Below, one piece after another: positions 15,502-64,000 of a stretch of 64,000 nt of DNA; positions within the stretch are counted from its first letter, which is position 1, and each line of letters starts with the position of its first letter. A program made the translations under genes and the position numbers. This stretch comes from an uncultured Chloroflexia bacterium (lineage in GTDB: Bacteria > Chloroflexota > Limnocylindria > Limnocylindrales > CSP1-4). Location of the stretch: positions 67,009 to 131,008 of the forward strand of contig CAWFPC010000008.1 of the NCBI GenBank assembly GCA_963817745.1, read 5' to 3'. The notes beneath the pieces are model-generated. The model was not told the DNA's origin. It did not search any database and saw only the letters and a program-made list of their open reading frames with translations.

Positions 15502-17769
15502 ATGGCCGCCCGACTCCAGTTGAAGCTCGGTCTCGTCGCCGAGCATGACCGCCTCCCCGACTCGCCCGACACGCTCGTCGTCGTCGAGCCGAGCGTGGGT
15601 TCGGTCGCGCGCTCCAAGGGGCACCTCTACCTGCTCGTGACCTCGCGGGTGAGCTCGCGCCACGCGCTCGAGGCGACGCGCCTCGCCGCCGAGACCATCC
15701 GCAACGAGTACTACTACGACGAGTCCGCCGGGATCCGGGTCTGCCTCCAGAAGGCGATCGCCACGGCCAACAAGCGACTGATCCACCAGGCCGACCGGCT
15801 CGGACTGCGCTCGCCCGAGGGCAACGGCCCGATCGGCGTCGGCGTCGCGGTCGTCCGCGGCAACGAGATGTACGTCGCCACGGTCGGCCCTGCCGAGGCG
15901 TACCTGATCCGCCAGGCGCGCCTCTCGACACTGCCGGACCCGCATCGCGAACGCGGCCTGCCGTCGAGCGGCCTGGAACCCGACGTCTGGCGTGGCGAGA
16001 TCTCGGTCGGCGACTCGCTCGTGCTCGTCTCGCCCGAACATGGTCGCGCGGCTCGGGGCGGACGAGCTCAAGGACGCGATGCTCACGCTCCACCCGCAGT
16101 CCGCGATGGAGCACCTCCACCAGCGGTTCGTGGCGGCCGACGGCTCCGGGTCGCGACGGCGCGATCGCGTTCGAGGCGACCGAGGTCGCGCCGACCACGC
16201 GGGCACGGACCCTCGTCCCGGTCCGCCCGTCAGAGCCGCTTGCCGGTGCGCCGGACCGCTCGCCGATCCCGCTGGCCGACAACGTGCAGGCAGGCGCCGC
16301 CGCGCATGACCGCCGCCGCCGGCAACGCCCGGGAGGCCGCCGGCGGGGCGCTGGAACGGGTCGTGGGCCGCGTCCAGGAGCTGATGCCCCGGCGCAAGCC
16401 GGCCTACCGCCGGGTGACGCCGCTGGCGTCCCGGCGCGAGACGCAGCGCCGGGCGGCGGTCGCCGCACTCGCGCTCATCACCGTGGTCGGCGGGCTGGGT
16501 CTCGCGGTCTACGCCTTCGGCGGTACCGACCAGGAGGGCGCGATCGGGTCGGTCAACGCCGGCCAGGCCGCGCTCGACAAGGCGCGCGCCAACCTGGCCG
16601 AGGTGTCGGGCCCCGGGATCGACCTCATCGAGGACGACCCGAACGAAGCCAGGAACCTGCTGACCGAGGCATACGAGGAGCTCGAGAAGGCCGAGACCGC
16701 CAAGGTCAGTGCGCGGGTCGTCGATCCGTTGCGGGCCAAGGTCATCGACGGGCTGGACCAGCTGGCCGGCGTGGTGCCCATCACCTCCGCCGAGCTGTTC
16801 GCCTTCACCCCGGAGGAGGGCGCCGAGCCGTTCGACCTGCACGCCCTGGTCCGCGGGCCTGACGGCGCCCCATACGTCATCGATGGCACGACCAAGACCG
16901 TCTACCGGGTGGACCTCAAGCGCAAGAAGGCGACGGCCGTGTTGCGCGCGGGCCGCGAGGTCGGCGACACGAAGGTCGCGGAGCCGCGCTTCCTCGCCGT
17001 CGGCGGACGCGACCTGCTCATCCTCGATGCGAAGAACGTGTTGTGGCGCTGGCGCCCGTCCAACGACGCGGGCAAGGGCACGCTCGGCAAGGTCAGCGTC
17101 AACGGATCGCGCGGCTGGGGCGACGACATCGCCGCCATCGGGACGTTCCTGCGAGACGTCGATCGCGGGCTCTACAACCTCTACGTCGTCGACCCCTCGG
17201 AGCAGCAGATCCGGGCGTACTCCCCGGCCGCGGATGGCGGCGGCTTCCCGGCCGCGGCGACCGGCTGGCTGGCCACCGCCCGTGCCGTCGACCAGATGAA
17301 GTCGCTCTACATCGATGGCGACATCTTCATCGCCGAGGGCGGTCTCCTCGAGCGGTTCACCCGCGGCAAGAACGACGGCTGGGACGCCGGGCTGCCCGAC
17401 GACGTCCTCCTGCGCCCGGCGCCGGTGTTCAGCCTGCTGACGGGCTGGGGCGGGCAGCGCGAGGGCATCGTGTACGGCTACGACAAGCCGAACGAACGGG
17501 TCGTCGCCGTCGACAAGGCCAACGCCGAGTACGTCGCCCAGTATCGCCTCGACAGCCCGGCCTCCGAGGACGGCCCGAGCTGGGACGACCTGCGCGGGAT
17601 GTACGTCGTCCCCGGCGTCGACGAGGCGCCCCCGACCGTCTTCTGGGTGTCGCCGACGGGGCTGCACGAGGCGACGCTCGGGTCGCTCGAGACACCCGAC
17701 GCGAGCGGCGCCCCATCGGGCGACCCGGACGCGAGCGCGGAAGCCTCGGCCGAGCCGACGACGCCGTAG
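15502..17769 (+). CDS. PstP-like Ser/Thr phosphatase: cytoplasmic PP2C domain, one TM helix, large extracytoplasmic domain; at least 2 frame changes (~16030, ~16290)
   Basis: PP2C-like region GHLYLLVTSRV...GVGVAVVRGNEMYVATVGPAEAYLIR with its end (LVLVSP..MVARLGADELKDAMLTLHPQ) in the adjacent frame. Then a TM helix (AAVAALALITVVGGLGLAVYAF) and a ~430-aa extracellular domain. Confidence 0.6.
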   Translation: MAARLQLKLGLVAEHDRLPDSPDTLVVVEPSVGSVARSKGHLYLLVTSRVSSRHALEATRLAAETIRNEYYYDESAGIRVCLQKAIATANKRLIHQADRLGLRSPEGNGPIGVGVAVVRGNEMYVATVGPAEAYLIRQARLSTLPDPHRERGLPSSGLEPDVWRGEISVGDSLVLVSPEHGRAARGGRAQGRDAHAPPAVRDGAPPPAVRGGRRLRVATARSRSRRPRSRRPRGHGPSSRSARQSRLPVRRTARRSRWPTTCRQAPPRMTAAAGNAREAAGGALERVVGRVQELMPRRKPAYRRVTPLASRRETQRRAAVAALALITVVGGLGLAVYAFGGTDQEGAIGSVNAGQAALDKARANLAEVSGPGIDLIEDDPNEARNLLTEAYEELEKAETAKVSARVVDPLRAKVIDGLDQLAGVVPITSAELFAFTPEEGAEPFDLHALVRGPDGAPYVIDGTTKTVYRVDLKRKKATAVLRAGREVGDTKVAEPRFLAVGGRDLLILDAKNVLWRWRPSNDAGKGTLGKVSVNGSRGWGDDIAAIGTFLRDVDRGLYNLYVVDPSEQQIRAYSPAADGGGFPAAATGWLATARAVDQMKSLYIDGDIFIAEGGLLERFTRGKNDGWDAGLPDDVLLRPAPVFSLLTGWGGQREGIVYGYDKPNERVVAVDKANAEYVAQYRLDSPASEDGPSWDDLRGMYVVPGVDEAPPTVFWVSPTGLHEATLGSLETPDASGAPSGDPDASAEASAEPTTP

Positions 17770-49185: not shown

Positions 49186-51829
49186 CTACTCGTGCCCGCC
49201 GGGGCCGAGGGCGGCGACCGCCCCGTGGCCATCACCATGCCCGTGATCGTGGCCATGGCCGTTGCCACCGTTTCCGGCCGGGGTGCCCGCGACCGCGGCC
49301 GGGAGCACCGGGAGGAATCTGGTCGTGTCGATGACGCGGCCCTCGGCCGCGGCCCGGCTCGCCCAGTCGCGCTCGCGCCGGATGTAGGTGACCTCGGTCT
49401 CGCGATCGATCGACGCGAGCGCCATGAGATCGATGGTCGGCTCCGCCCGACCGGTATGGGCGAGCTCGATGTCGCCGCCGTCGCGCAGCGCGTCGTACGG
49501 GCAGGCATCGACGCAGATGCCGCACAGGATGCAGCGGCTCTCGTCGACCTCGTACTTCTCGAGGACGCGCGGCTTGGGCATGAGCGCGCCCGTCGGGCAC
49601 GTCTCGGCGCAGCGGCCGCACGACACGCACGGGGTGTCGTTCAGGCTCATGTCGAGCGGCGTGGTCACGAGCGTGTCGAAGCCGATCCGCATGAAGTCGT
49701 AGCACGCCGCGCCGACGACCTCGGAGCAGACCTGGGCGCACCGGCCGCAGTCGATGCAGCGTGACGGCTCGCGCAGGATGAACGCGTGGGAGTCGTCGCG
49801 GATGTAGTCGTGGTTGACGCCCGTGAAGCGGTTCTCGGTGACGCTCCGATAGCCCGCGCCCTGGTGGTGCGCCGGTTCGAGGGTCTGGAGCGTCGTGCCG
49901 TACTCGATGCCCAGCCGTCGCAGGTCGCAGAAGCCGATCGCCTCGCAGGTGCACTGCAGGCAGCGGGTCGACTCCGCGATGGCGGCCTCGCGGGTGTACG
50001 GCAGCTCGTACTCGATATAGCTGCTGTTGCGGAGGTCGGCCTCCAGCGCGGTCATCCGGTAGCGCGGTTCCTTGACCTCGCTCGTGAACGGCACGATCGA
50101 CAGGAACTCCGGCTGCGGCTCGGCCAGCGTCTGGCGCGTCCGGATCGCCGACAGGTCCAGGCCCTTGAGGAAGGCATCCACCGCGTACGCGGAACGCCGT
50201 CCCTCGGCGACGGCCTGGACCACGGTCGCCGCGCCGATGCGCACGTCACCCGTGCCGAAGACCCCCGGTCGTCCGGTCTCGAAGGTGACGGCGTCCGCCT
50301 TCAGGCGCCACTGCTTGGTCTTCTCTGGCCCCTCGTTGCCGGGCTGCTCCAGCCAGTCGAGCTCGGGGCCCTGGCCGATGGCCAGCAGCACCCGGTCGCA
50401 GGGGATCGTGAACTCGGTCCCGGGCGCGGGCTCCGGCCGTCGGCGTCCGGACGCGTCCGGCGCACCGAGCGCCATCCGGATGAACTCCACGCCGGTCACG
50501 TTCCCGTCGTCGTCGACCATGACCCGCGTCGGGCCGGCCTGGAAGATGGCGGTCACGCCCTCCTCGATGGCCTCGTGGACCTCGTCGGCGGCCGGCATGT
50601 CCTTCATGTCGCGGCGGTAGACGAGCGTGACCTCCTTCGCGCCCTGGCGGACCGAGGTGCGCGAGCAGTCCATCGACGTGAACCCGCCACCGATGACGAC
50701 GACCCGCTTGCCGACGTGATCGGGATACGGCAGCCCGAGCGTGGCCGTCCGCAGGTACTCGAGGCCGTCGAGCACCTCGGCGGCGTCCTCGTTGGGGATG
50801 CCGAGCTTGTTCGTGTCGTAGCAGCCGATGGCGACGACGACGGCATCGAAGCCCTGGTTCGGTCAGGTCGTCGAGCGAGAAATCGCGCCCGAGTCCCGCG
50901 TTGCAGACCATCTTCCCGCCGAGACGGGTGACCAATTCGTACTCCGCCTCGAGCACCTCGACCTTCGGCAGGCGGTACTGCGGGATCCCGTAGCGGAGCA
51001 TGCCGCCGGGCGCCGGGTCGCGCTCGAAGACCGTCACGTCGTGGCCGGCGATCAGGAGGTAGTAGGCGGCGCTCATGCCGGCCGGCCCTGACCCGATGAC
51101 CGCGGCCCGACGGCCCGACTTCACCTGCTGCTCGAACGGGACCGGCGGGTCCACGCCGTCGTCCAGCATGGACTTGAGGACCTGGTCGCCCGCGTAGCGA
51201 TGGGTGTCGCGGATGGCGATCGCCTCGTCGACCTCGTCGCGCCGGCAATGCTCCTCGCACGGTGCCGGGCAGACCCGGCCGAGGACGCTGGGGAACGGGA
51301 TCGTCCGCTTGAAGATCCGTGCCGACTCGCGGAAGTCGCCCTCGGCGTTGGCCTTGAGGAAGCCCGGGATGTCGATGTGGCTCGGGCACTTGTTCTGGCA
51401 CGGCGGCAGGCAGTAGGCGTTGTGGTCGCTGAAGATCAGCTCCAGGTTGGTCCGGCGCAGCCGGCGGACCTCCTCGGTCTGCGTCTGCACCTTCATCTCG
51501 GGCTCGCAGGTGCGCGAGCACGAGATCGGCGGATGCTCCTCGCCCTCGACCTCGACGACGCACATGCGGCACGCCCCGAACCCGGGCAGCTTCGGCTCGT
51601 AGCACAGGGTCGGGATCTCGATGCCGTTGTCGCGGCAGACCTCGAGGATCGTCTGGCCCTCGTAGCCCTCGACGACGCGGCCGTCGACCTCGATACGGAT
51701 CCGCGGGGTGGACTGCGGCCGCTGCGGCGACTGGGTGTCGAGCAGCCGCTCCGCCAGCGAATCGGCGTTCGTTCGGGCCGTCGTCGTCGGAAGGGGGCGG
51801 CCGTCGGGGCGGGCGATGGTGTCGGTCAT
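49186..51829 (-). CDS. Multi-cluster flavoprotein replacing canonical NuoG: NuoG-N-terminus-like [2Fe-2S] + His-ligated [4Fe-4S], a GltD-like FAD/NAD(P)H oxidoreductase core, a C-terminal 2x[4Fe-4S] ferredoxin domain and a His-rich tail; one frameshift near 50822
   Basis: IRIEVDGRVVEGYEGQTILEVCRDNGIEIPTLCYEPKLPGFGACRMCVVEVEG (N1b-like). SDHNAYCLPPCQNKC (H-x3-C-x2-C-x5-C, N5-like). GltD dinucleotide folds RRAAVIGSGPAGMSAAYYLL and KRVVVIGGGFTSMDCSRT. Then CIDCGRCAQVC..., CVSCGRCAETCP and CILCGICVDACP, ending PAGNGGNGHGHDHGHGDGHGA. ATG overlaps the nuoF stop (ATGA). Confidence 0.6.
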
Positions 51830-53122: not shown

Positions 53123-53841
53123 GGCGTTACGCCCTGGCCGGAGCGCCGGAGCGCCCGCCCCCATCCGACGTCTTGCCGCGCCCGCCGCGCCGGCCACCGC
53201 CGAGCGCGCTGTCGAGGGCCGCGAGATAGCTCGACTTCGGGCGGACGTTGGTCGCTCACCGCGGTCGCCTGCTCGACCGATGCCGGTGGCTCGAAGCGCA
53301 GGTGCGCGTAGTAGCTCGCCGTCCCGTAGATCATCGCGTACCAGGCGCCGGTGGCGTGGCTGATGCGCTTGAGCGCCGCCACCGGGAGGTAGCCGTAGGC
53401 CGTCTGCGTCGCCTCGAGGATCTCGAGCATGCGGGCCGGATCGTGGTCGTACTCCTCGAGGATCGTGTCCACGACGGCGAGGTCGACCGGCGCGAACGGC
53501 ACGTACGCCGGATCGGGCACGGGCCGGCCGGAGCGACGCAGCGCGGATTCCTCGCGGCGCTCGCCGTACGTCTCCGACGCGCCCCAGTGGACGTGGTAGC
53601 GCCCGCGGGTGTCGATGCCGCCCATGTCGATGCATTCGATCGGACACGCCTGGGCGCACTGGAAGCAGGTCTCGCACTTGAGCGTGCCCCACTCGTCGTA
53701 GAGCAGCTGCAGCCGGCCGCGGAACTTGTGCGGGACGTCGACCCGCACCTCGGGGTACATGACGGTGACCTTGGGCTCGAAGAAGCGGCGCAGGGTCAGG
53801 GCCATGCCCTTCGCGATGCCCAGGCCCGGGATGAGCGTCAT
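53119..53841 (-). CDS. Chimeric ORF: NuoI N-terminal half (one [4Fe-4S] motif only) fused in frame to a NuoE-like N-terminal helical domain that lacks the thioredoxin-like [2Fe-2S] domain
   Basis: MTLIPGLGIAKGMALTLRRFFEPKVTVMYPEVRVDVPHKFRGRLQL...LKCETCFQCAQACPIECIDMGGIDTRGRYHVHW is NuoI up to just before cluster 2. Then ...VDLAVVDTILEEYDHDPARMLEILEATQTAYGYLPVAALKRISHATGAWYAMIYGTASYYAHLRFEPP is the NuoE N-domain. No Cys occurs in any frame between 53123 and 53300. ATG overlaps the nuoH stop. Confidence 0.5.
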   Translation of the reverse strand: MTLIPGLGIAKGMALTLRRFFEPKVTVMYPEVRVDVPHKFRGRLQLLYDEWGTLKCETCFQCAQACPIECIDMGGIDTRGRYHVHWGASETYGERREESALRRSGRPVPDPAYVPFAPVDLAVVDTILEEYDHDPARMLEILEATQTAYGYLPVAALKRISHATGAWYAMIYGTASYYAHLRFEPPASVEQATAVSDQRPPEVELSRGPRQRARRWPARRARQDVGWGRALRRSGQGVTP

Positions 53842-55319: not shown

Positions 55320-56550
55320 TCACTTGTCGACGCCGCCCATGATCGGATCCAGCGAGGCCATCACGGCCATGGTGTCGGCGATGAGGTGACCTGGCGTCAT
55401 CACGCCGACGGCCTGGAGGTGGATGAACGAGGGATCGTGGATGCGCATGCGGAACGGCTGGTCGGTCCCGTCGCTCATGACGTACGCCGCGTACTGCCCG
55501 CGCGGTCCTTCGATGCCGGCGTAGGCGCGTCCCGGACGCGGGCGGAGCAGCCGCGGTAGCTTGGCCGTGACCGGCCCGTCGGGCATCTCGTGGAGGCACT
55601 GGTCGATGATCCGCAGGCTCTGCTTGATCTCGTCCATCCGCAGCAGGTAGCGCGCGAGGCAGTCGCCCTCGGTCCGCGTCGGGATGTCGAAGTCGAGCTC
55701 GGGGTAGGCGCTGTACGGATGCGCCCGCCGCACGTCGAAGGGCACGCCCGGTCGCCCGCAGGTTCGGGCCGGTCATCACCATCCGCAGCGCCGTCGCCGA
55801 TCGATCTTGCCGAGGTCGCGCATCCGGCGGACGAAGATCTCGTTCTCGTTGAGCAGCGCGTTCCCGGCCTCGATCTGCTCGGTCGCGTGGCTCATCCAGT
55901 CGCCGAGACGGCTCAGGAACTCGTGGTTGAGGTCGCCGTTCACCCCGCCGATGCGGAAGTAGTTGAAGAGCATCCGCTGGCCGGTGAGCGACGCGAGCAT
56001 GTCGACGATCTCGTCACGCTCGATGAACGACCACAGGATCGGGGTCAACCCGCCAAGGTCGAGCGCCATCCAGCCGAGGAACAGGGAATGGCTGGCGATC
56101 CGGTTGAGCTCGGCCGAGAGCACGCGGATGTACTCGGCCCGGCGCGGGACCTCGACGTCCAGGAGCTTCTCGAAGGCCATGACGCCGGGCCATTCGCAGA
56201 ACAGCGAGCTGACGTACTCGAGCGGGTCGAGGTAGCAGATCGCCTGGTGGTAGTCCGCGTTCTCGCACAGCTTCTCGACCCCGCGATGGAGGTAGCCGAG
56301 CACCGGGTCGAGGTCGACGACCTTCTCGCCGTCGAGCTTGAGCACGACGCGGAGCACGCCGTGCGTCGACGGGTGCTGCGGGCCCATGTTGATGAGCATC
56401 TCGCCGTCGCGCAGCGTGTAGAACTCGGCCTCGCGCTCGGTCCGCGGCGGGTACGGCGGGACGGGCTCGAACACGCCGAGCTCGCGGTCGAGCGTGACGC
56501 GCGGGTCGTCGGCGGAGGCGTGGCCGGGTCGCGGGGTCGTGGCGGTCATC
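55320..56550 (-). CDS. nuoD: NADH-quinone oxidoreductase subunit D (49-kDa); short segment near 55745-55780 in a third frame
   Basis: LINMGPQHPSTHGVLRVVLKLDGEKVV...YLHRGVEKLCE...TGPNLRATG...C-terminal ...RIHDPSFIHLQAVGVMTPGHLIADTMAVMASLDPIMGGVDK*. Confidence 0.85.
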
Positions 56551-57773: not shown

Positions 57774-57845
57774 GTCGCGCGAGGACGTCGTCGCGACCGC
57801 GCTGTCCGGAAGCCTTCGTACCCTTGCCGCTCCGTGTCTTCGGGG

Positions 57846-58208
57846 TCATCGCCACGACAGGGCTCCCTTCCGCCAGGCGTAGGCCAGGCCGAGCAGCAGG
57901 ATCACGACGAAGATCAGCATGCTGATCAGGCCACCAAGCAGCAGGTCCTGGAAGGCGATCGCCCAGAGGTAGATGAACACCACCTCGATGTCGAACGCCA
58001 CGAACAACAGGGCGTAGATGTAGAACGACAGGCCGAACCGGCCGTGGGTGTCGCCGTAGGTGTCGATGCCCGATTCGTAGGGCAGGCCCTTGTGGACGTC
58101 GCCTCGGTTGCGGTGGGAAACGAGCCACGCGGCGCCGATCGTCAGGAAGACGAAGCTGACGCCCGCGAAGGCGAAGCCCACGACGTACCAGATGCCAGTC
58201 AATCGAAC
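57846..58208 (-). CDS. nuoA: NADH-quinone oxidoreductase subunit A (alternative longer start at 58277)
   Basis: 3 TM; GLPYESGIDTYGDTHGRFGLSFYIYALLFVAFDIEVVFIYLWA is canonical NuoA. Confidence 0.8.
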   Translation of the reverse strand, partial: VRLTGIWYVVGFAFAGVSFVFLTIGAAWLVSHRNRGDVHKGLPYESGIDTYGDTHGRFGLSFYIYALLFVAFDIEVVFIYLWAIAFQDLLLGGLISMLIFVVILLLGLAYAWRKGALSWR

Positions 58209-58600
58209 TCCCTTGCGGGGGCTCGCCACCGGCGCCGAGGCCGGACCCGAGACCCCCTGGGCGGGCGTGGGGCGCACCGCACGTCGGTCGCCCGTGCCCA
58301 GTCCATTCTAGCAGCGGGCACGCTCGCGCCGGGGCGACGGCGAGGGTGGGCGATCGGGGGTTTCGGAGCCGGGACGACGCTCGGTGTCGGGCGCGTCACG
58401 GGAGTGGGATCCGCGCGCGTGGCCAGGGGCGCGCGGCGACATCTGGGTCCCGGCGATGGAGGAGGTCGGGGAACGAAGCGCGCCGAGCGCGCGTGCAGGT
58501 TCGCGCTCCGTTCCCCGGCGGTGGGCCGTGCGACGGCCATGGCAAGCGTGGCGGAGCGGGCCTCCGGGCTGCAATAGGGCATTCGCCCTATATCGCCTAC

Positions 58601-59868
58601 TGATCCGGTGGGAGATCGGCGCTCCCCCGGCGGCGGTTCGGCATGCGGAACGCGAACAAGCCGAGCGGCGGGTAGTCGGCCGATCCCGGCCAGTCGCGCC
58701 CGAACGCCATCACCCGGAACCGGCCCATCGCCCCGGGATCCAGGAGCCGCATGAGCGATGCGCGCAGCGAGGCGTAGGCCTCGAACGTCGTCGCCGGGAT
58801 CGCGCTGGATGCGTCGCAGCCGATCCTCGATCCCGAGGCCGATGAGTGCCTCGGCCTGCGTCGTGATGCCGACCGTCGTGAGGTCCGCCGCCCGGGCGGC
58901 CCGTTCCACGGCCGTCACGTCGACGTGGGCGGTCAGGTCCTGGCGGCCGACGTGCCGGTACGGATCGTCGTGGACCTGGTGACGGACGTACGCCCGGAGC
59001 GTGCCGTCCCGACGCCGGATCGGGTCGTACAGCTCCACGGCGGGTGCCCCGTAGTCGATGCACAGGAGCAGCCCGCGTCGGAGGGTCGCCGCCGCCCCTG
59101 CGATCCAGCCGTCGAGCGCCAGGCAGACCTCGGCCGTCTGGCCGTCGACGAGCTCGATCCGCTCGGCGGCGAGCCGGACCGCGAGATCCGGCGTCGACGT
59201 GGCGGTCTCGACCTCGGCGAAACTGTCGCCGTCCAGCCCGACCGAGACCTCGACCAGCGCGTCGCCCCGTCGACGGACGCGATGCACGGGGAGGGCGTCG
59301 AGGACCTCGTTCGCGAGGACGATGCCCTCGATCGTCGGTCGGGACGTGGCATCGCCGCGGACCGGACGTGCGGCCGTCGTCGTGCGCGGCGATCCGCGAG
59401 GCGTGGCCGGCGTCCTCGAGCGCGTCCCGGAACTGGAGCAGCCGCCGCGGGTCGACCTCCACCGGCTCCCAGCGAACCGCCGTCGGCCAGCCCGGAACGG
59501 TCGGCGACGAGCCCGTCGAGCACGGCCGTCGCGAGGGCGCCGGTCCCGGCGCCGTGCTCGCGGATGACGAACGGGTCGGGCCGCCCCAGCCGCTCCCAGA
59601 CCTCGGTGAACCCGCTCGCCAGCGTGTAGCCGAAGATCGGGTGGAGCTCGGGCGCGGTCAGGAAGTCGCCGTCGCGGCCGGGCCGCGCCGCCTCGGCCCG
59701 GTAGTACCCGCCATCCGGGTCGTACAGCGCGAGCTCCATGAACCGGGCGAACGTGATCGGCCCGTCTCGCCGGATCTCGTCGCGGATCCGCTCGGCGAGC
59801 GCCTCGTCCTGTCCGACGTCGGCACGGTCGGTCGGCGGCTCGCGGCGGAGCTCGATGCGTGGATCCAT
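58601..59868 (-). CDS. MidA-family (DUF185) SAM-dependent methyltransferase, homologue of the mitochondrial complex I assembly factor NDUFAF7; frameshift near 59470, 3' end inferred
   Basis: N-terminus ...IRRDGPITFARFMELALYDPDGGYYR...GDFLTAPELHPIFGYTLA...VIREHGAGTGALA. C-terminal half LANEVLDALPVHRV...LLCIDYGAPAVELYDP...GTLRAYVRHQVHDDPYRHVGRQDLTAHVDVTAVERAA. Confidence 0.65.
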
Positions 59869-59880
59869 CGCCTGCGGATG

Positions 59881-60909
59881 CTAGCCGGGTCGCGCGGGCG
59901 CGGCGTGCGCGCCACCTCGGGCCTGCCGCCGAGGGCGAGGCGGAGCCCGGGACCCACGAGCGTGTGCCCACCAGCAGCACCGGGATCGGTGCGGTGGCGG
60001 CCGCGGCCGTGAGCTCGCGCAGCCATGGGTCGACGATGCGTTCGTGGAGCAACAGGTCGGACGCGAAGCGATCCTCCGACGAGGGCCAGCCGGACTCGTC
60101 GGCGCCGAGGCGGTGGGCAAGGAGCACGCGCGTGTCGAGCACGGCCGCCTCGCCGAGTCGCGCGAGGTGCGCGCCCAGCGACGAGGGGCCGTCGCGCTCG
60201 AGGAGCAGCCCGAGACTCGACGCCGGGTGCCGCTGACCGGGTCGCGGGGCCGCTGCGGAGGCCGCGCTCCTCGACGAGCGCCCGTGTCCGCGATGCGGTC
60301 CCGCCTTCGAGCCAGCGCAGGGTGTCGCTCGAGAGACGACCGGCGACCAGCAGCTCCGCCCCGGGGTCCGCGGCGATCCGCCGGACGGCGGCCAACCGCT
60401 CGTCGACCCTGGACCGACGTCGCCCGGCAGCGAGCCGGCCCAGCGCGCCCCGAGGAGGACGAGATCCAGCGGCCCGTCGATATCGACCCCGAGCCGCCAC
60501 GATCGACGACGGTCGGCGACCGGCACGCCCGCGACATCGGCCAGCCAGCGCGGCAGCGCGTTGTCGGTGGCGAGGTCCGGCAGGTCGGCGAGGGTCGTGT
60601 GCGCCCGGGCGATGGCCACGACGTCGGCCGAGTAGCGGTTGTTGGCGAGGGCGCCCGGATCGCGGCGCCGGCGACGGCCACGAATGCCCGCCGGTCGGCC
60701 GCCGTCGCCAGCGGGATGGCCCCGGAGCCGAGGACGACCAGCCCGCCGTCCGGCGGAACGTCGCGAAGCAGCGCCCGCAGCCGAGCGCCGAACGGCCTGG
60801 CGTCGAGCGGATCCGAGACGATGCGGACCGATCCCGCGCCGGCGGCCAGGAACCCATCGCGATGGCGCGCCGCGAGGCGGGCCCGGGCATCCGAGACGCA
60901 CCGCGTCAA
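59881..60909 (-). CDS. Hypothetical protein, possibly CofC/MobA-like nucleotidyltransferase fold; spread across at least 2 frames
   Basis: Frame A: MTRCVSDARARLAARHRDGFLAAGAGSVRIVSD...GGLVVLGSGAIPLATAADRRAF. Frame B: ...ALANNRYSADVVAIARAHTTLADLPDL...RLGVDIDGPLDLVLLG...LGADESGWPSSEDRFASDLLLHERIVDPWL. Family assignment is weak. Confidence 0.3.
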   Translation of the reverse strand: MTRCVSDARARLAARHRDGFLAAGAGSVRIVSDPLDARPFGARLRALLRDVPPDGGLVVLGSGAIPLATAADRRAFVAVAGAAIRAPSPTTATRPTSWPSPGRTRPSPTCRTSPPTTRCRAGWPMSRACRSPTVVDRGGSGSISTGRWISSSSGRAGPARCRATSVQGRRAVGRRPADRRGPRGGAAGRRSSLERHPALARRRDRIADTGARRGARPPQRPRDPVSGTRRRVSGCSSSATAPRRWARTSRDSARRPCSTRACSLPTASAPTSPAGPRRRIASRPTCCSTNASSTHGCASSRPRPPPHRSRCCWWAHARGSRAPPRPRRQARGGAHAAPARPG

Positions 60910-61005
60910 CGGCCCCGCGCCGGGATCCGCGCTGGGGGTGCAGGATGACGACGGTCACATCGTTCGGTGGCACCGGGCGAGTCTAGAGGCAGGTCGGAGG
61001 GTGAC

Positions 61006-61635
61006 GTGGTCGAGCGCCGGGTCCGCGCCTACATCGGCCTCGGGGCCAACGTCGGCGATGCCGCGCGCACGCTGACCGATGCGGTCCATGCCCTGGCCGC
61101 GCTGCCGGGCTGCCGACTGCGCGGGGTGTCGGCGCTGTACGCCACCGCGCCGTGGGGCGTGGCTGATCAACCCGAGTTCCGCAACGCCGTCGTCGCACTC
61201 GACGTGCCGGCGGGACCGACGCCCGAAGCGGGAGCGCTTGCCCTGCTCGCCTCGCTCAAGGATCTCGAGCGAGGGGCCGGACGGCGCCAGCGGGCGCGTT
61301 GGGGCCCGCGCGAGCTCGATCTCGATGTCCTCGTGTTCGGGCGGCACCGGATCTCGGTCGAGCGAACGCCGGCGGCCGCGTCGCTCGATGCCGCCGTCGA
61401 TCCGGCGAAGGCCGCGCGCCGGCTCGAGGTCCCGCACCGCGACGCGCGGGAGCGCCTGTTCGTCCTCGCGCCCGCTGGCCGATCTTGCCCCGGTCTCGTG
61501 CCGCCGGGCTGGGGCGAGACCGTCGAGACCGCGCGTCGACGCGTCGCGGCCGCGGAACCGCCGGACGCCGTCCGGCGTGTCGGCGCCTGGGATGCCGCCG
61601 CGGGTCGCTGGCGGCCGGTCGCTCAGCCGAGGTAG
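61006..61635 (+). CDS. folK: 2-Amino-4-hydroxy-6-hydroxymethyldihydropteridine pyrophosphokinase (HPPK)
   Basis: AYIGLGANVGDAARTL...LYATAPWGVADQPEFRNAVVAL...GRRQRARWGPRELDLDVLVFG...LEVPHRDARERLFVLAPL is canonical FolK. Confidence 0.85.
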   Translation: MVERRVRAYIGLGANVGDAARTLTDAVHALAALPGCRLRGVSALYATAPWGVADQPEFRNAVVALDVPAGPTPEAGALALLASLKDLERGAGRRQRARWGPRELDLDVLVFGRHRISVERTPAAASLDAAVDPAKAARRLEVPHRDARERLFVLAPAGRSCPGLVPPGWGETVETARRRVAAAEPPDAVRRVGAWDAAAGRWRPVAQPR

Positions 61636-62346: not shown

Positions 62347-63321
62347 TCAGGGAGTGACGACGCGGAACCCGATGTGCTCGTCGGCATAGTTGGGCGGATC
62401 CTCGTAGTGGCGGTACGCGGCGCGGGCGACGAACGGGTTGCTGCCCCACCAGCCGCCCTTCTCGACCTTGTTGCGGCCGCCGTCGGGACCGGTCGGATCG
62501 ACCGCCGGACTGTCGGCGTAGTATCCCGCGTCCAGCCAGTCCGCCACCCATTCCATCGCGTTGCCGGCCATGTCGAGCGCCCCGACCCAGCTCGCCCCGT
62601 CCGGATAGCTGCCGACCGGTGTCGGGCCGGTGCTGTCGACGACGTTGGCGAGCGCCGGATCGAACGTCGCGCCCCACGGATAGGTCCGCGAGTCGGGTCC
62701 GCGCGCCGCGAACTCCCACTCGGCCTCGGTCGGGAGCCGGCCACCGCGCCACGTCGCGAACGCCTCGGCCTCCCACCACGACACGCAGCGACGCGGATGC
62801 TCGGGCAGGGTGCCCTCGCAGGTCGCCGGCAGCGTCGCGGCGTCACGGTGGCCCAGCCACTTCCAGCCGCCCTCCGACCAGAGGGCCTCCGTGGTGTAGC
62901 CCCCGGCATCGACGAAGGCCGCGAAGTCGGCGTTGGTCACTTCGTCGACGATCGAGCCAGAACCCCGTTCGAGAGCGTGACCTCGTGCTGTGGCTGCTCG
63001 CTCGGGAACTCGTCGACGACCCACGCCGGCGGCGTCTCGGCGGTGAGTGCCTCGATGGTCGCCGCGTCCGTGCCCATCAGGAACGTGCCGGCCGGGACCC
63101 AGACCTGCTCGGCACCGGTCGGATCCGTGCGGACATCGCCGAGCGCCCCGGGCGCGGTCGAGGTGCGGCGCTCGGGGCGACGGCCGCCGACGGCGAGGCC
63201 GCCTGGCTGGCGCCGCTCCGAGGCTGACGGTGCACCGGCTGGGCGCAACGCTGCCGACGGCCGGACCACTGCATGCGGCAAGGAAGAGGACGATCGGGAT
63301 GAGCGTCAGGCGGGCACGCAT
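62347..63321 (-). CDS. Formylglycine-generating-enzyme (FGE-sulfatase/SUMF1) family lipoprotein; 2 frame changes (~63250, ~62940)
   Basis: Lipoprotein signal MRARLTLIPIVLFLAACSG. Then VWVPAGTFLMGTD... (adjacent frame) and the C-terminal FGE core ...RLPTEAEWEFAARGPDSRTYPWG...GNAMEWVADW...HIGFRVV. Confidence 0.65.
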   Translation of the reverse strand: MRARLTLIPIVLFLAACSGPAVGSVAPSRCTVSLGAAPARRPRRRRPSPRAPHLDRARGARRCPHGSDRCRAGLGPGRHVPDGHGRGDHRGTHRRDAAGVGRRRVPERAATARGHALERGSGSIVDEVTNADFAAFVDAGGYTTEALWSEGGWKWLGHRDAATLPATCEGTLPEHPRRCVSWWEAEAFATWRGGRLPTEAEWEFAARGPDSRTYPWGATFDPALANVVDSTGPTPVGSYPDGASWVGALDMAGNAMEWVADWLDAGYYADSPAVDPTGPDGGRNKVEKGGWWGSNPFVARAAYRHYEDPPNYADEHIGFRVVTP

Positions 63322-63471: not shown

Positions 63472-64000
63472 TCAGCCGAGCCGCAGGTTCGGCAGGACCT
63501 CCTTGCCGAAGACCTCGATCCACTCCGGCTGGTTCCGGCCGACGTGATGCAGGTGGATCTCGTCGAACCCCAGGTCGACGTAGTGCTGGATGTTCTCGAT
63601 GTGGCGGTCGAGGTCGCGAGCTGATGAGCATCCGGTTGACGAAGTTCTCCGGCCGGACGAGCTTCGCCATCGCGGCGAAGTCCTCGGGGTTGCGGATGTC
63701 CTGCTTGGGGAAGGCCATCCCGCCGTTCGGCCACTCCTTGATGGCGATGTCGGTGGCCTCCTCGTCCGTGTGCGCCCAGCTCATGTGCAGCTGCAGGATC
63801 TTCGGCATGTTCGTGGGGTCCTTGCCGGCCTCGCGCGCCCCGAGGTCGTTGTTCTCCCACAGCTCCTTGAGCTTCGCGTCGGCCGCCCGACCGTGATCAT
63901 CCCGTCGGCCAGCCGGCCGGTGCGCTTGGCGTTGAGCGGGCCGGCCGTCGCGACGTAGATCGGCACGGGTCGCTCGGGCAGGGTGTAGAGCTTGGCGCTC
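63472..64000 (-). CDS. fgd: F420-dependent glucose-6-phosphate dehydrogenase (LLM-class oxidoreductase), C-terminal ~175 aa; 5' end beyond the window; 2 frame changes
   Basis: ...YVATAGPLNAKRTGRLADGMITVG...MPKILQLHMSWAHTDEEATDIAIKEWPNGGMAFPKQDIRNPEDFAAMAKLVRPENF...EIHLHHVGRNQPEWIEVFGKEVLPNLRLG* is near-colinear with mycobacterial Fgd1. Confidence 0.85.

Follow-up and report, generated by a model that had tools for sequence, protein, structure and literature searches.

In animals, NDUFAF7, a member of the MidA family of S-adenosylmethionine (SAM)-dependent methyltransferases, is essential for the assembly of complex I. The family includes the human enzyme and Dictyostelium MidA (5ZTZ), and the reaction assigned to it is the symmetric dimethylation of Arg85 of NDUFS2, the homolog of bacterial NuoD. 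Symmetric dimethylarginine is present at the equivalent NuoD/NDUFS2 site in humans, in Pichia, and in Paracoccus denitrificans, where it is Arg65 of Nqo4 (Carroll et al. 2013, PMC3750175); Escherichia coli NuoCD carries this arginine (Arg249) without modification, and the T. thermophilus residue is a threonine (PMC3750175). A review ascribes NDUFS2 methylation to alphaproteobacterial homologs on bioinformatic and structural grounds (PMC9006661). Here we analyze a MidA-family gene, midA, that lies upstream of the complex I gene nuoA in a 64,000-nucleotide stretch of DNA from an uncultured Chloroflexia bacterium assigned to the class Limnocylindria (GCA_963817745.1, contig CAWFPC010000008.1, positions 67,009 to 131,008); the whole stretch is referred to below as the window. 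From the homology to NDUFAF7 and a conserved linkage to NuoD-encoding gene clusters, we lean toward the view that this MidA methylates an arginine of NuoD.

The closest solved relatives of the window protein are 4F3N/4G67 and 1ZKD, structural genomics entries of the COG1565/DUF185 group, which we take to be proteins of Burkholderia and Rhodopseudomonas palustris, respectively. They match it over nearly the full length and have the EFGAGTG, NEVLDAxPV, and IDYG motifs in common with it, but their substrate is unassigned, and proteobacterial midA lay away from nuo in all 50 loci scored (MidA identity to the window protein, 33 to 42%). With human NDUFAF7 and Dictyostelium MidA, the window protein shares the full PF02636 domain and SAM motif I. 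However, this similarity is distant (90 bits, compared with 202 bits for 4F3N), and the host belongs to the Chloroflexota and not to the alphaproteobacterial or mitochondrial lineage. Moreover, the window gene is physically linked to nuo, an arrangement without a eukaryotic counterpart, and its activity is a predicted one. The bacterial complex I of P. denitrificans is modified at Nqo4 Arg65 (PMC3750175), which corresponds to R89 in the window NuoD; the enzyme there is a predicted one (PMC12455994).

Linkage of midA to NuoD-encoding clusters

To collect relatives of the locus, we scanned GTDB with each species represented by one genome and scored the resulting 80 loci by tblastn; L-numbers denote these and the further loci named below. 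In the window, midA occupies positions 58597 to 59868 on the minus strand, as determined by three-frame translation, tblastn, and the Pfam family PF02636, and runs from an ATG at 59868 to a TAG stop codon at 58599-58597. The original prediction was right about the strand and the coordinates except for the end, which it had set at 58601. No single open reading frame (ORF) in the six-frame list of the window, which has a G+C content of ~70%, covers midA, and the frame changes three times, by 1 nt each, at approximately 59518-59495, 59385-59350, and 58812-58796. A tblastn search of the window with the intact MidA of L002 returned four collinear high-scoring segment pairs in three frames. The frame 1 product opens with MDPRIELRREPPTD, extends through EHGAGTGALA, and turns into unrelated sequence near 59500; homology resumes in frame 2 (VRWEPVEVDPRRL) and then in frame 3 (IEGIVLANEVLDALPVHRV, followed by IDYGAP), and the C terminus (ATTFEAYASLRASLMRLLDPGAMGRFRVMAFGRDWP) is read in the first frame again, up to the stop codon. 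The MidA product of ~422 amino acids (aa) is a conceptual translation made after repair of these three 1-nt frameshifts, and all family scores refer to the repaired form.

Repaired MidA matched PF02636 (Methyltransf_28, COG1565) over profile positions 2 to 248 of 249 with 167.1 bits (cutoff, 23.3 bits; E = 6.5e-49), in agreement with the MidA/NDUFAF7 family first proposed for it. It is 65 to 72% identical, with 96 to 98% of its length aligned, to more than 100 intact homologs of 400 to 410 aa from metagenome-assembled genomes (MAGs) of Chloroflexota and Candidatus Limnocylindrales. The motifs EHGAGTG (SAM motif I), ANEVLDALPVH, and IDYGAP are invariant in an alignment of 21 sequences and are matched in 4F3N. 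Searching the PDB with a profile of the clade returned 4F3N (202 bits, E = 1e-58), 1ZKD (137 bits, E = 7e-39), and 5ZTZ (90 bits, E = 1e-24). By these sequence measures, the window MidA is an ordinary member of the known MidA/NDUFAF7 family, and both the gene and its position are far above chance expectation.

The gene nuoA (57846 to 58202, minus strand; 92% identical to NuoA of L002 over 118 aa by tblastn; PF00507 in L001 and L002) starts with a TTG codon at 58202, preceded by the Shine-Dalgarno sequence GGGAG at 58212-58208. The gap between midA and nuoA therefore measures 394 nt, within the 330 to 400 bp first estimated, and the two genes lie on the same strand. The original prediction had put this adjacency forward for comparison with related genomes, and it is kept: midA lies directly upstream of nuoA in 22 Chloroflexota/Limnocylindria loci, with gaps of 170 to 425 nt and a MidA at least 45% identical to that of the window. 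On two long contigs with intact homologs (L001 and L002), the genes are, in order, an FGE-sulfatase gene, folK on the opposite strand, hyp350 (encoding a protein of ~350 aa), midA, and nuoA-B-C-D-H; downstream of nuoH lie genes for a thioredoxin-like 2Fe-2S subunit, NuoF, and a large fusion with Fer2, GltD, and Fer4 parts. The order folK<>hyp350-midA-nuoABCDH was found in about 25 loci (L001-L016, L019, L020, L022-L024, L026, L029, L074, L132, and L189); the contig of L013 stops short of nuoA, and midA and nuoA are separated by a CBS-domain gene in L001 and by an insert of ~2.4 kb in L027.

The block folK-hyp350-midA-nuo is steadier than the genes further upstream (FGE and peptidase S51). Its left edge is folK (HPPK; 60967 to 61635, plus strand), which is divergent from hyp350-midA, was identified by ORF translation, tblastn (71% identity), and PF01288 in L001 and L002, and keeps its position in most loci of the clade. 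The order tsaD-folB-folK-(~1 kb)-MidA also occurs in several gamma- and betaproteobacterial loci (L030, L043, L058, L061, L068, L076, and L081); the folK-MidA neighborhood may predate the nuo linkage, or this may be a coincidence.

The same class contains a second MidA clade (type 2; 365 to 372 aa), which is 37 to 38% identical to the window type (type 1) and has its own nuo-like cluster. In L048 (1642-9173) and L066 (1504-9179), ORF and Pfam analysis gave the order nuoB-like, nuoD-like, ferredoxin (NuoI-like), nuoF-like, Fer2/GltD/Fer4 fusion, and midA, whose first 13 nt are shared with the preceding gene. Neither membrane-subunit genes nor nuoA, nuoC, or nuoH were found in this nuoB-D-I-F-G' cluster. 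Type 2 MidA is abundant, and seven further contigs carry the same cluster upstream of it; type 2 clusters are present in L203-L206 and in loci within L208-L211 (L208 and L210 among them), and L207 is arranged differently. In some loci, a small gene (tyrosine-phosphatase-like or encoding a 231-aa protein) or a gap of 0.1 to 1.4 kb lies in between. Type 2 midA looks co-transcribed with its cluster. MidA proteins of types 1 and 2 differ from one another at least as much as each differs from proteobacterial MidA, and the NuoD proteins of the two kinds of cluster are 41 to 44% identical. With two linkage geometries, two deep MidA clades, and two NuoD genes, inherited gene order alone is hard to sustain as an explanation, and among the new arguments that MidA and NuoD are functionally connected, this dual linkage is the strongest.

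NuoD R89 as candidate substrate and the weight of inherited gene order

The candidate substrate is R89 of NuoD, in the motif LGYLH-R-GVEK, encoded by a CGC codon at 56285-56283 within nuoD (55320 to 56549, minus strand, from translation). The original prediction had asked for the arginine targeted by NDUFAF7 to be sought in this NuoD; it is present, and the arginine of the LHRG motif is kept in 24 of 24 clade loci, type 2 (NuoD2) included. Counting along the bovine sequence puts Arg85 in LLH-R-GTEK, and this placement agrees with LH-T-GFEK of T. thermophilus. By this residue count and the published positions (PMC3750175), the window R89 is the equivalent of bovine R85, Paracoccus R65, and the T. 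thermophilus threonine.

We propose that midA and hyp350 form a two-gene unit between folK and the nuo operon, that nuo would be transcribed from its own extended -10 promoter (TGCTAGAAT, see below), and that an RNA unit would lie between midA and that promoter. MidA would use SAM to dimethylate R89 of the LH-R-G motif, adjoining the Fe-S cluster N2, and would do so while the peripheral arm is being assembled, as happens in mitochondria and in Paracoccus. The link between midA and nuo would be one of genomic co-localization, perhaps with shared regulation of the region, and not one of operon membership. The functional tie between MidA and complex I that was originally suggested is supported, though indirectly, by the two syntenic arrangements and by the retained arginine; co-regulation through co-transcription is not supported at this locus.

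The tightest genomic partner of midA is hyp350, not nuoA. In the window, hyp350 lies directly upstream of midA (59881 to 60973, minus strand), where it is frameshifted and was traced by tblastn in three frames and with the gene calls of L001 and L002; in L002 (8952-10004), it overlaps the start of midA by 4 nt. Its relatives in L001 and L002 have 350 to 387 aa and carry no Pfam domains, and searches of Pfam, NCBIfam, and the PDB sequences gave no match to hyp350. An AlphaFold2 model reached a predicted local distance difference test score of 89.8. With Foldseek, the N-terminal ~200 aa best matched 2I5E (E = 7e-5; template modeling [TM] score, 0.37 normalized to the query and 0.58 normalized to the target), and further matches were 6BWG, 7P97, and MobA 1E5K, with E values up to 1e-2 and target-normalized TM scores of 0.5 to 0.6. 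The resemblance to the CofC/FbiD/MobA nucleotidyltransferases is confined to the N-terminal fold, whereas hyp350 has ~150 extra C-terminal residues and no sequence match to these proteins. As modeled, the fold speaks neither for nor against a complex I role.

The alternative that survives best is that the neighborhood reflects descent, in which case the target of MidA would lie elsewhere (an arginine of another protein, a nucleic acid, or something linked to hyp350 or folK), and its position beside nuo would be inherited and functionally meaningless. The following observations all weigh against methylation of NuoD by MidA. The adjacency of midA and nuoA is a conserved trait of one clade and was probably gained once, so that inherited order could explain much of it. 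MidA is apart from nuoA in L017, L018 (Thermomicrobium), L021, and L025; in the last two of these, it follows clpB while hyp350 remains beside folK or nuoA, and in L025, the gene immediately 5' of nuoA is hyp350, not midA. None of the 50 proteobacterial loci has nuo near MidA, and the several among them with folK close to MidA are matched by the folK that flanks the Limnocylindria block. The retained arginine is weak evidence, since E. coli has this arginine without methylation, and the window MidA is nearer to 4F3N, an uncharacterized COG1565 protein, than to Dictyostelium MidA. The function of prokaryotic MidA is described as "only inferred in silico," and preliminary DNA-methylating activity is reported for a Wolbachia MidA expressed in E. 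coli (PMC12455994).

The first of these two reports makes the earlier statement that a bacterial MidA-complex I link is undemonstrated roughly right, and the second, together with the tight coupling of midA to hyp350 instead of nuoA and the 394-nt spacer with its promoter-like motif, favors a target elsewhere. A literature search, incomplete in its coverage, found no paper on MidA-nuo gene linkage in Chloroflexota. On the other side, a second, deeply diverged MidA clade is tied to the other NuoD-encoding cluster in a different geometry (at its 3' end and overlapping it in some loci), the block from folK to nuo outlasts its upstream neighbors, and the NuoD homolog is the only experimentally established substrate of the MidA/NDUFAF7 family. 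Taken together, inheritance without function deserves serious attention but seems to us an unlikely account of the locus.

The nuo operon itself is unusual on its electron-input side (53236-53841 and 49189-51829 on the minus strand of the window; 15990-16667 and 17962-20610 in L002). After nuoH comes a gene for a protein of ~225 aa that joins a NuoI-like 4Fe-4S N terminus to a NuoE-like 2Fe-2S thioredoxin-like domain, and next comes nuoF. The place of nuoG is taken by a fusion of ~880 aa with Fer2_4, GltD-like Pyr_redox_2, and Fer4 parts, and a separate nuoE-F-G block between nuoD and nuoH is absent.

The spacer between midA and nuoA

In an alignment of 24 intergenic sequences, the most conserved hexamer was TAGAAT, ~100 nt before nuoA, with TG one base upstream in most sequences (TGnTAGAAT) and a conserved Shine-Dalgarno sequence downstream; one-base variants of the hexamer occur in L020 (TAGGAT) and L024 (TACGAT), and L025 also differs by one base from TGnTAGAAT. 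In the window, this extended -10 promoter-like motif is TGCTAGAAT (58305 to 58313, minus strand), which predicts a transcription start near 58298 and a 5' untranslated region of ~96 nt for nuo. The motif is kept where the CBS gene (L001) or hyp350 (L025) precedes nuoA, and from its conservation we infer that it is the promoter of the nuo operon. A generic promoter and terminator consensus scan of 57800-61100 found no two-hexamer sigma-70 site and no intrinsic terminator, so that conservation is the sole basis of the promoter call, which tells against this part of our proposal. Of the two signals that the original prediction had suggested looking for between the genes, a promoter-like motif is thus present and a canonical terminator is not.

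The spacer also holds a conserved structured element of ~145 nt (58456 to 58599, minus strand), which begins at the midA stop codon and was delimited with the intergenic alignment, RNAalifold, and a covariance model. In the window, it consists of TAGGGC followed by GCCCTATTGC with a -35-like TTGCAG at 58574-58569, an 18-nt spacer, a -10-like CACGCT at 58550-58545, hairpin 2 at 58538-58524, and the long hairpin 3 at 58518-58467 with an invariant apical GAACCUGCACGCGCGCUCGG. Across the clade, the first blocks read TA.GGC....CCCTATTGC, a spacer of ~18 nt, and CA...T with an invariant A and T; judged by sequence, they have the look of a -35 element with TTGC and a -10 element with its two key bases. 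The long hairpin has 16 bp, and RNAalifold counted 13 compensatory pairs. In a MAFFT alignment, 94.8% of cells were paired, compared with 32 to 56% with slid partners, and 0 of 500 shuffles matched the observed covariation. The element has a minimum free energy of -46.9 kcal/mol (z = -3.6). G-U pairs outnumber A-C pairs by about 4:1, and this excess favors the midA/nuo sense strand. Hairpin 1 (TAGGGC/GCCCTA) was considered as a conserved stem and rejected, as relatives keep its sequence and not its pairing.

With the covariance model, we found one copy of the element per locus in 23 loci (L001-L015, L019, L026, L027, L029, L074, L132, L189, and L200) and in the window, with scores of 70 to 132 bits in the sense orientation and below 25 bits in the antisense orientation, and no further copy at a significant score in the 64-kb window. 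An Rfam search of 58100-58700 returned no family; its two hits had E values of 8.5 to 9.9, far under the gathering scores. In a metagenome scan with the 16-nt element core, a pattern so short and GC-rich that it matches by chance, 117 of 120 matches were chance ones without nuo or MidA, and the real ones were L132, L189, and L200. The element remains with nuoA in L001 and L027 despite the intervening genes. In L189 (3780-3954), the element as a whole, promoter-like part included, lies in reverse orientation between midA and TGCTAGAAT, and the orientation of TGCTAGAAT is unchanged. This inversion, a single example on a metagenome contig for which misassembly is possible, suggests that the element is an autonomous unit. 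We read the element as a unit that stands by itself, perhaps a small RNA gene that carries a promoter, and not as a terminator of midA or a leader that nuo requires.

These features of the spacer also bear on a second alternative, in which midA would open the nuo unit or be its second gene and transcription would reach nuoA by read-through. Such an operon would fit the common strand, the conserved adjacency, the lack of a canonical intrinsic terminator in the spacer, and type 2 MidA, which does look co-transcribed with nuo-like genes. Yet the spacer measures 170 to 425 nt in all type 1 loci, the extended -10 motif stands before nuoA even after the CBS gene or hyp350, and the RNA element accompanies nuoA in both L001 and L027 and has the reverse orientation in L189. 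With an autonomous RNA element and a conserved extended -10 motif inside the spacer, co-transcription is unlikely; type 1 midA appears to be transcribed separately from nuoA, and the co-regulation that the original prediction had suggested is not supported in the form of co-transcription, since an independent promoter seems to be present. We regard membership of midA in the nuo operon as improbable.

Frameshifts in the window and the reach of a probable MidA-NuoD link

The frameshifts in midA are not isolated. In the window, hyp350, nuoD, nuoF, and the nuoG-like gene are likewise shifted, and their aligned segments are 81 to 94% identical to relatives by tblastn. The affected regions are nuoD 55773-55778, nuoF ~52160, nuoG-like ~50855, hyp350 59900-60970, FGE-like 62350-63320, and luciferase-like 63475-63996. 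Single-base indels occur at a rate of ~1 per 1.5 kb over the 15 kb compared, and since many conserved genes are split in this way, ORF-based annotation of the window is fragmented. Two of the midA junctions are explained by one surplus base in a short G/C run (gacGGcgg and gatcccGGcg), and all invariant MidA residues are present on either side of every shift. In nuoD, a 1-nt deletion is followed 52 nt on by a 1-nt insertion (GG to GGG); the DNA between them is conserved with relatives, and the pair yields two in-frame stops at 55778-55773.

MidA is also frameshifted in four relatives (L019, L026, L027, and L074; one to three shifts each), all from MFD- or "contig_"-named MAGs, which from their names we take to be long-read assemblies. 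In the loci named like short-read assemblies, every MidA is in one frame. These relatives, at MidA residues ~107 to 146, and the window, at ~59495-59518, have a frameshift in a common short stretch, which looks like a systematic consensus-error hot spot and not like biology. Programmed frameshifting in midA was considered for this shared site and rejected, as all other loci are single-frame. Because indels also affect hyp350, nuoD, nuoF, and the nuoG-like gene and, in the MidA of relatives, are limited to the MFD and "contig_" MAGs, we hold the indels of the window to be, very probably, assembly errors. On this interpretation, midA is probably intact in the organism; the intact reading hangs on the error interpretation, and this too has to be set against our proposal. 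Although midA, hyp350, nuoD, nuoF, and the nuoG-like gene all lack an intact ORF in the sequence as given, it is highly improbable that the three frameshifts are real and that midA and other genes here are decaying, as the genes hit include core complex I subunits that are well conserved in their aligned segments, midA shows no other sign of decay and retains its invariant residues around each shift, both nuoD indels fall within conserved DNA and the inserted base belongs to a run of G, and similar shifts with a shared hot spot appear in independent MFD and "contig_" MAGs and not in other loci.

The undescribed, covariation-supported RNA element near the nuo promoter may interest work on the regulation of respiration in this abundant soil and freshwater lineage. 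Methylation of NuoD by MidA, which we favor, would fit the mitochondrial expectation and extend it to a distant phylum, and the locus supplies a testable enzyme-substrate pair in the window MidA and NuoD R89. A broader and more doubtful proposal, which we offer tentatively, is that this methylation is a step by which complex I matures in bacteria other than Proteobacteria, for which Limnocylindria recruited MidA to NuoD clusters in two separate arrangements, and that the window locus is a module dedicated to the biogenesis and regulation of complex I, with hyp350 and, just upstream of the nuo promoter, a self-contained small structured RNA as further parts. If true, such a step would go against the view of a "proteobacterial origin." The conserved linkage of two divergent MidA clades to NuoD clusters, in a phylum only distantly related to the ancestor of mitochondria, is independent genomic evidence for an old, bacterial relationship between MidA and NuoD.

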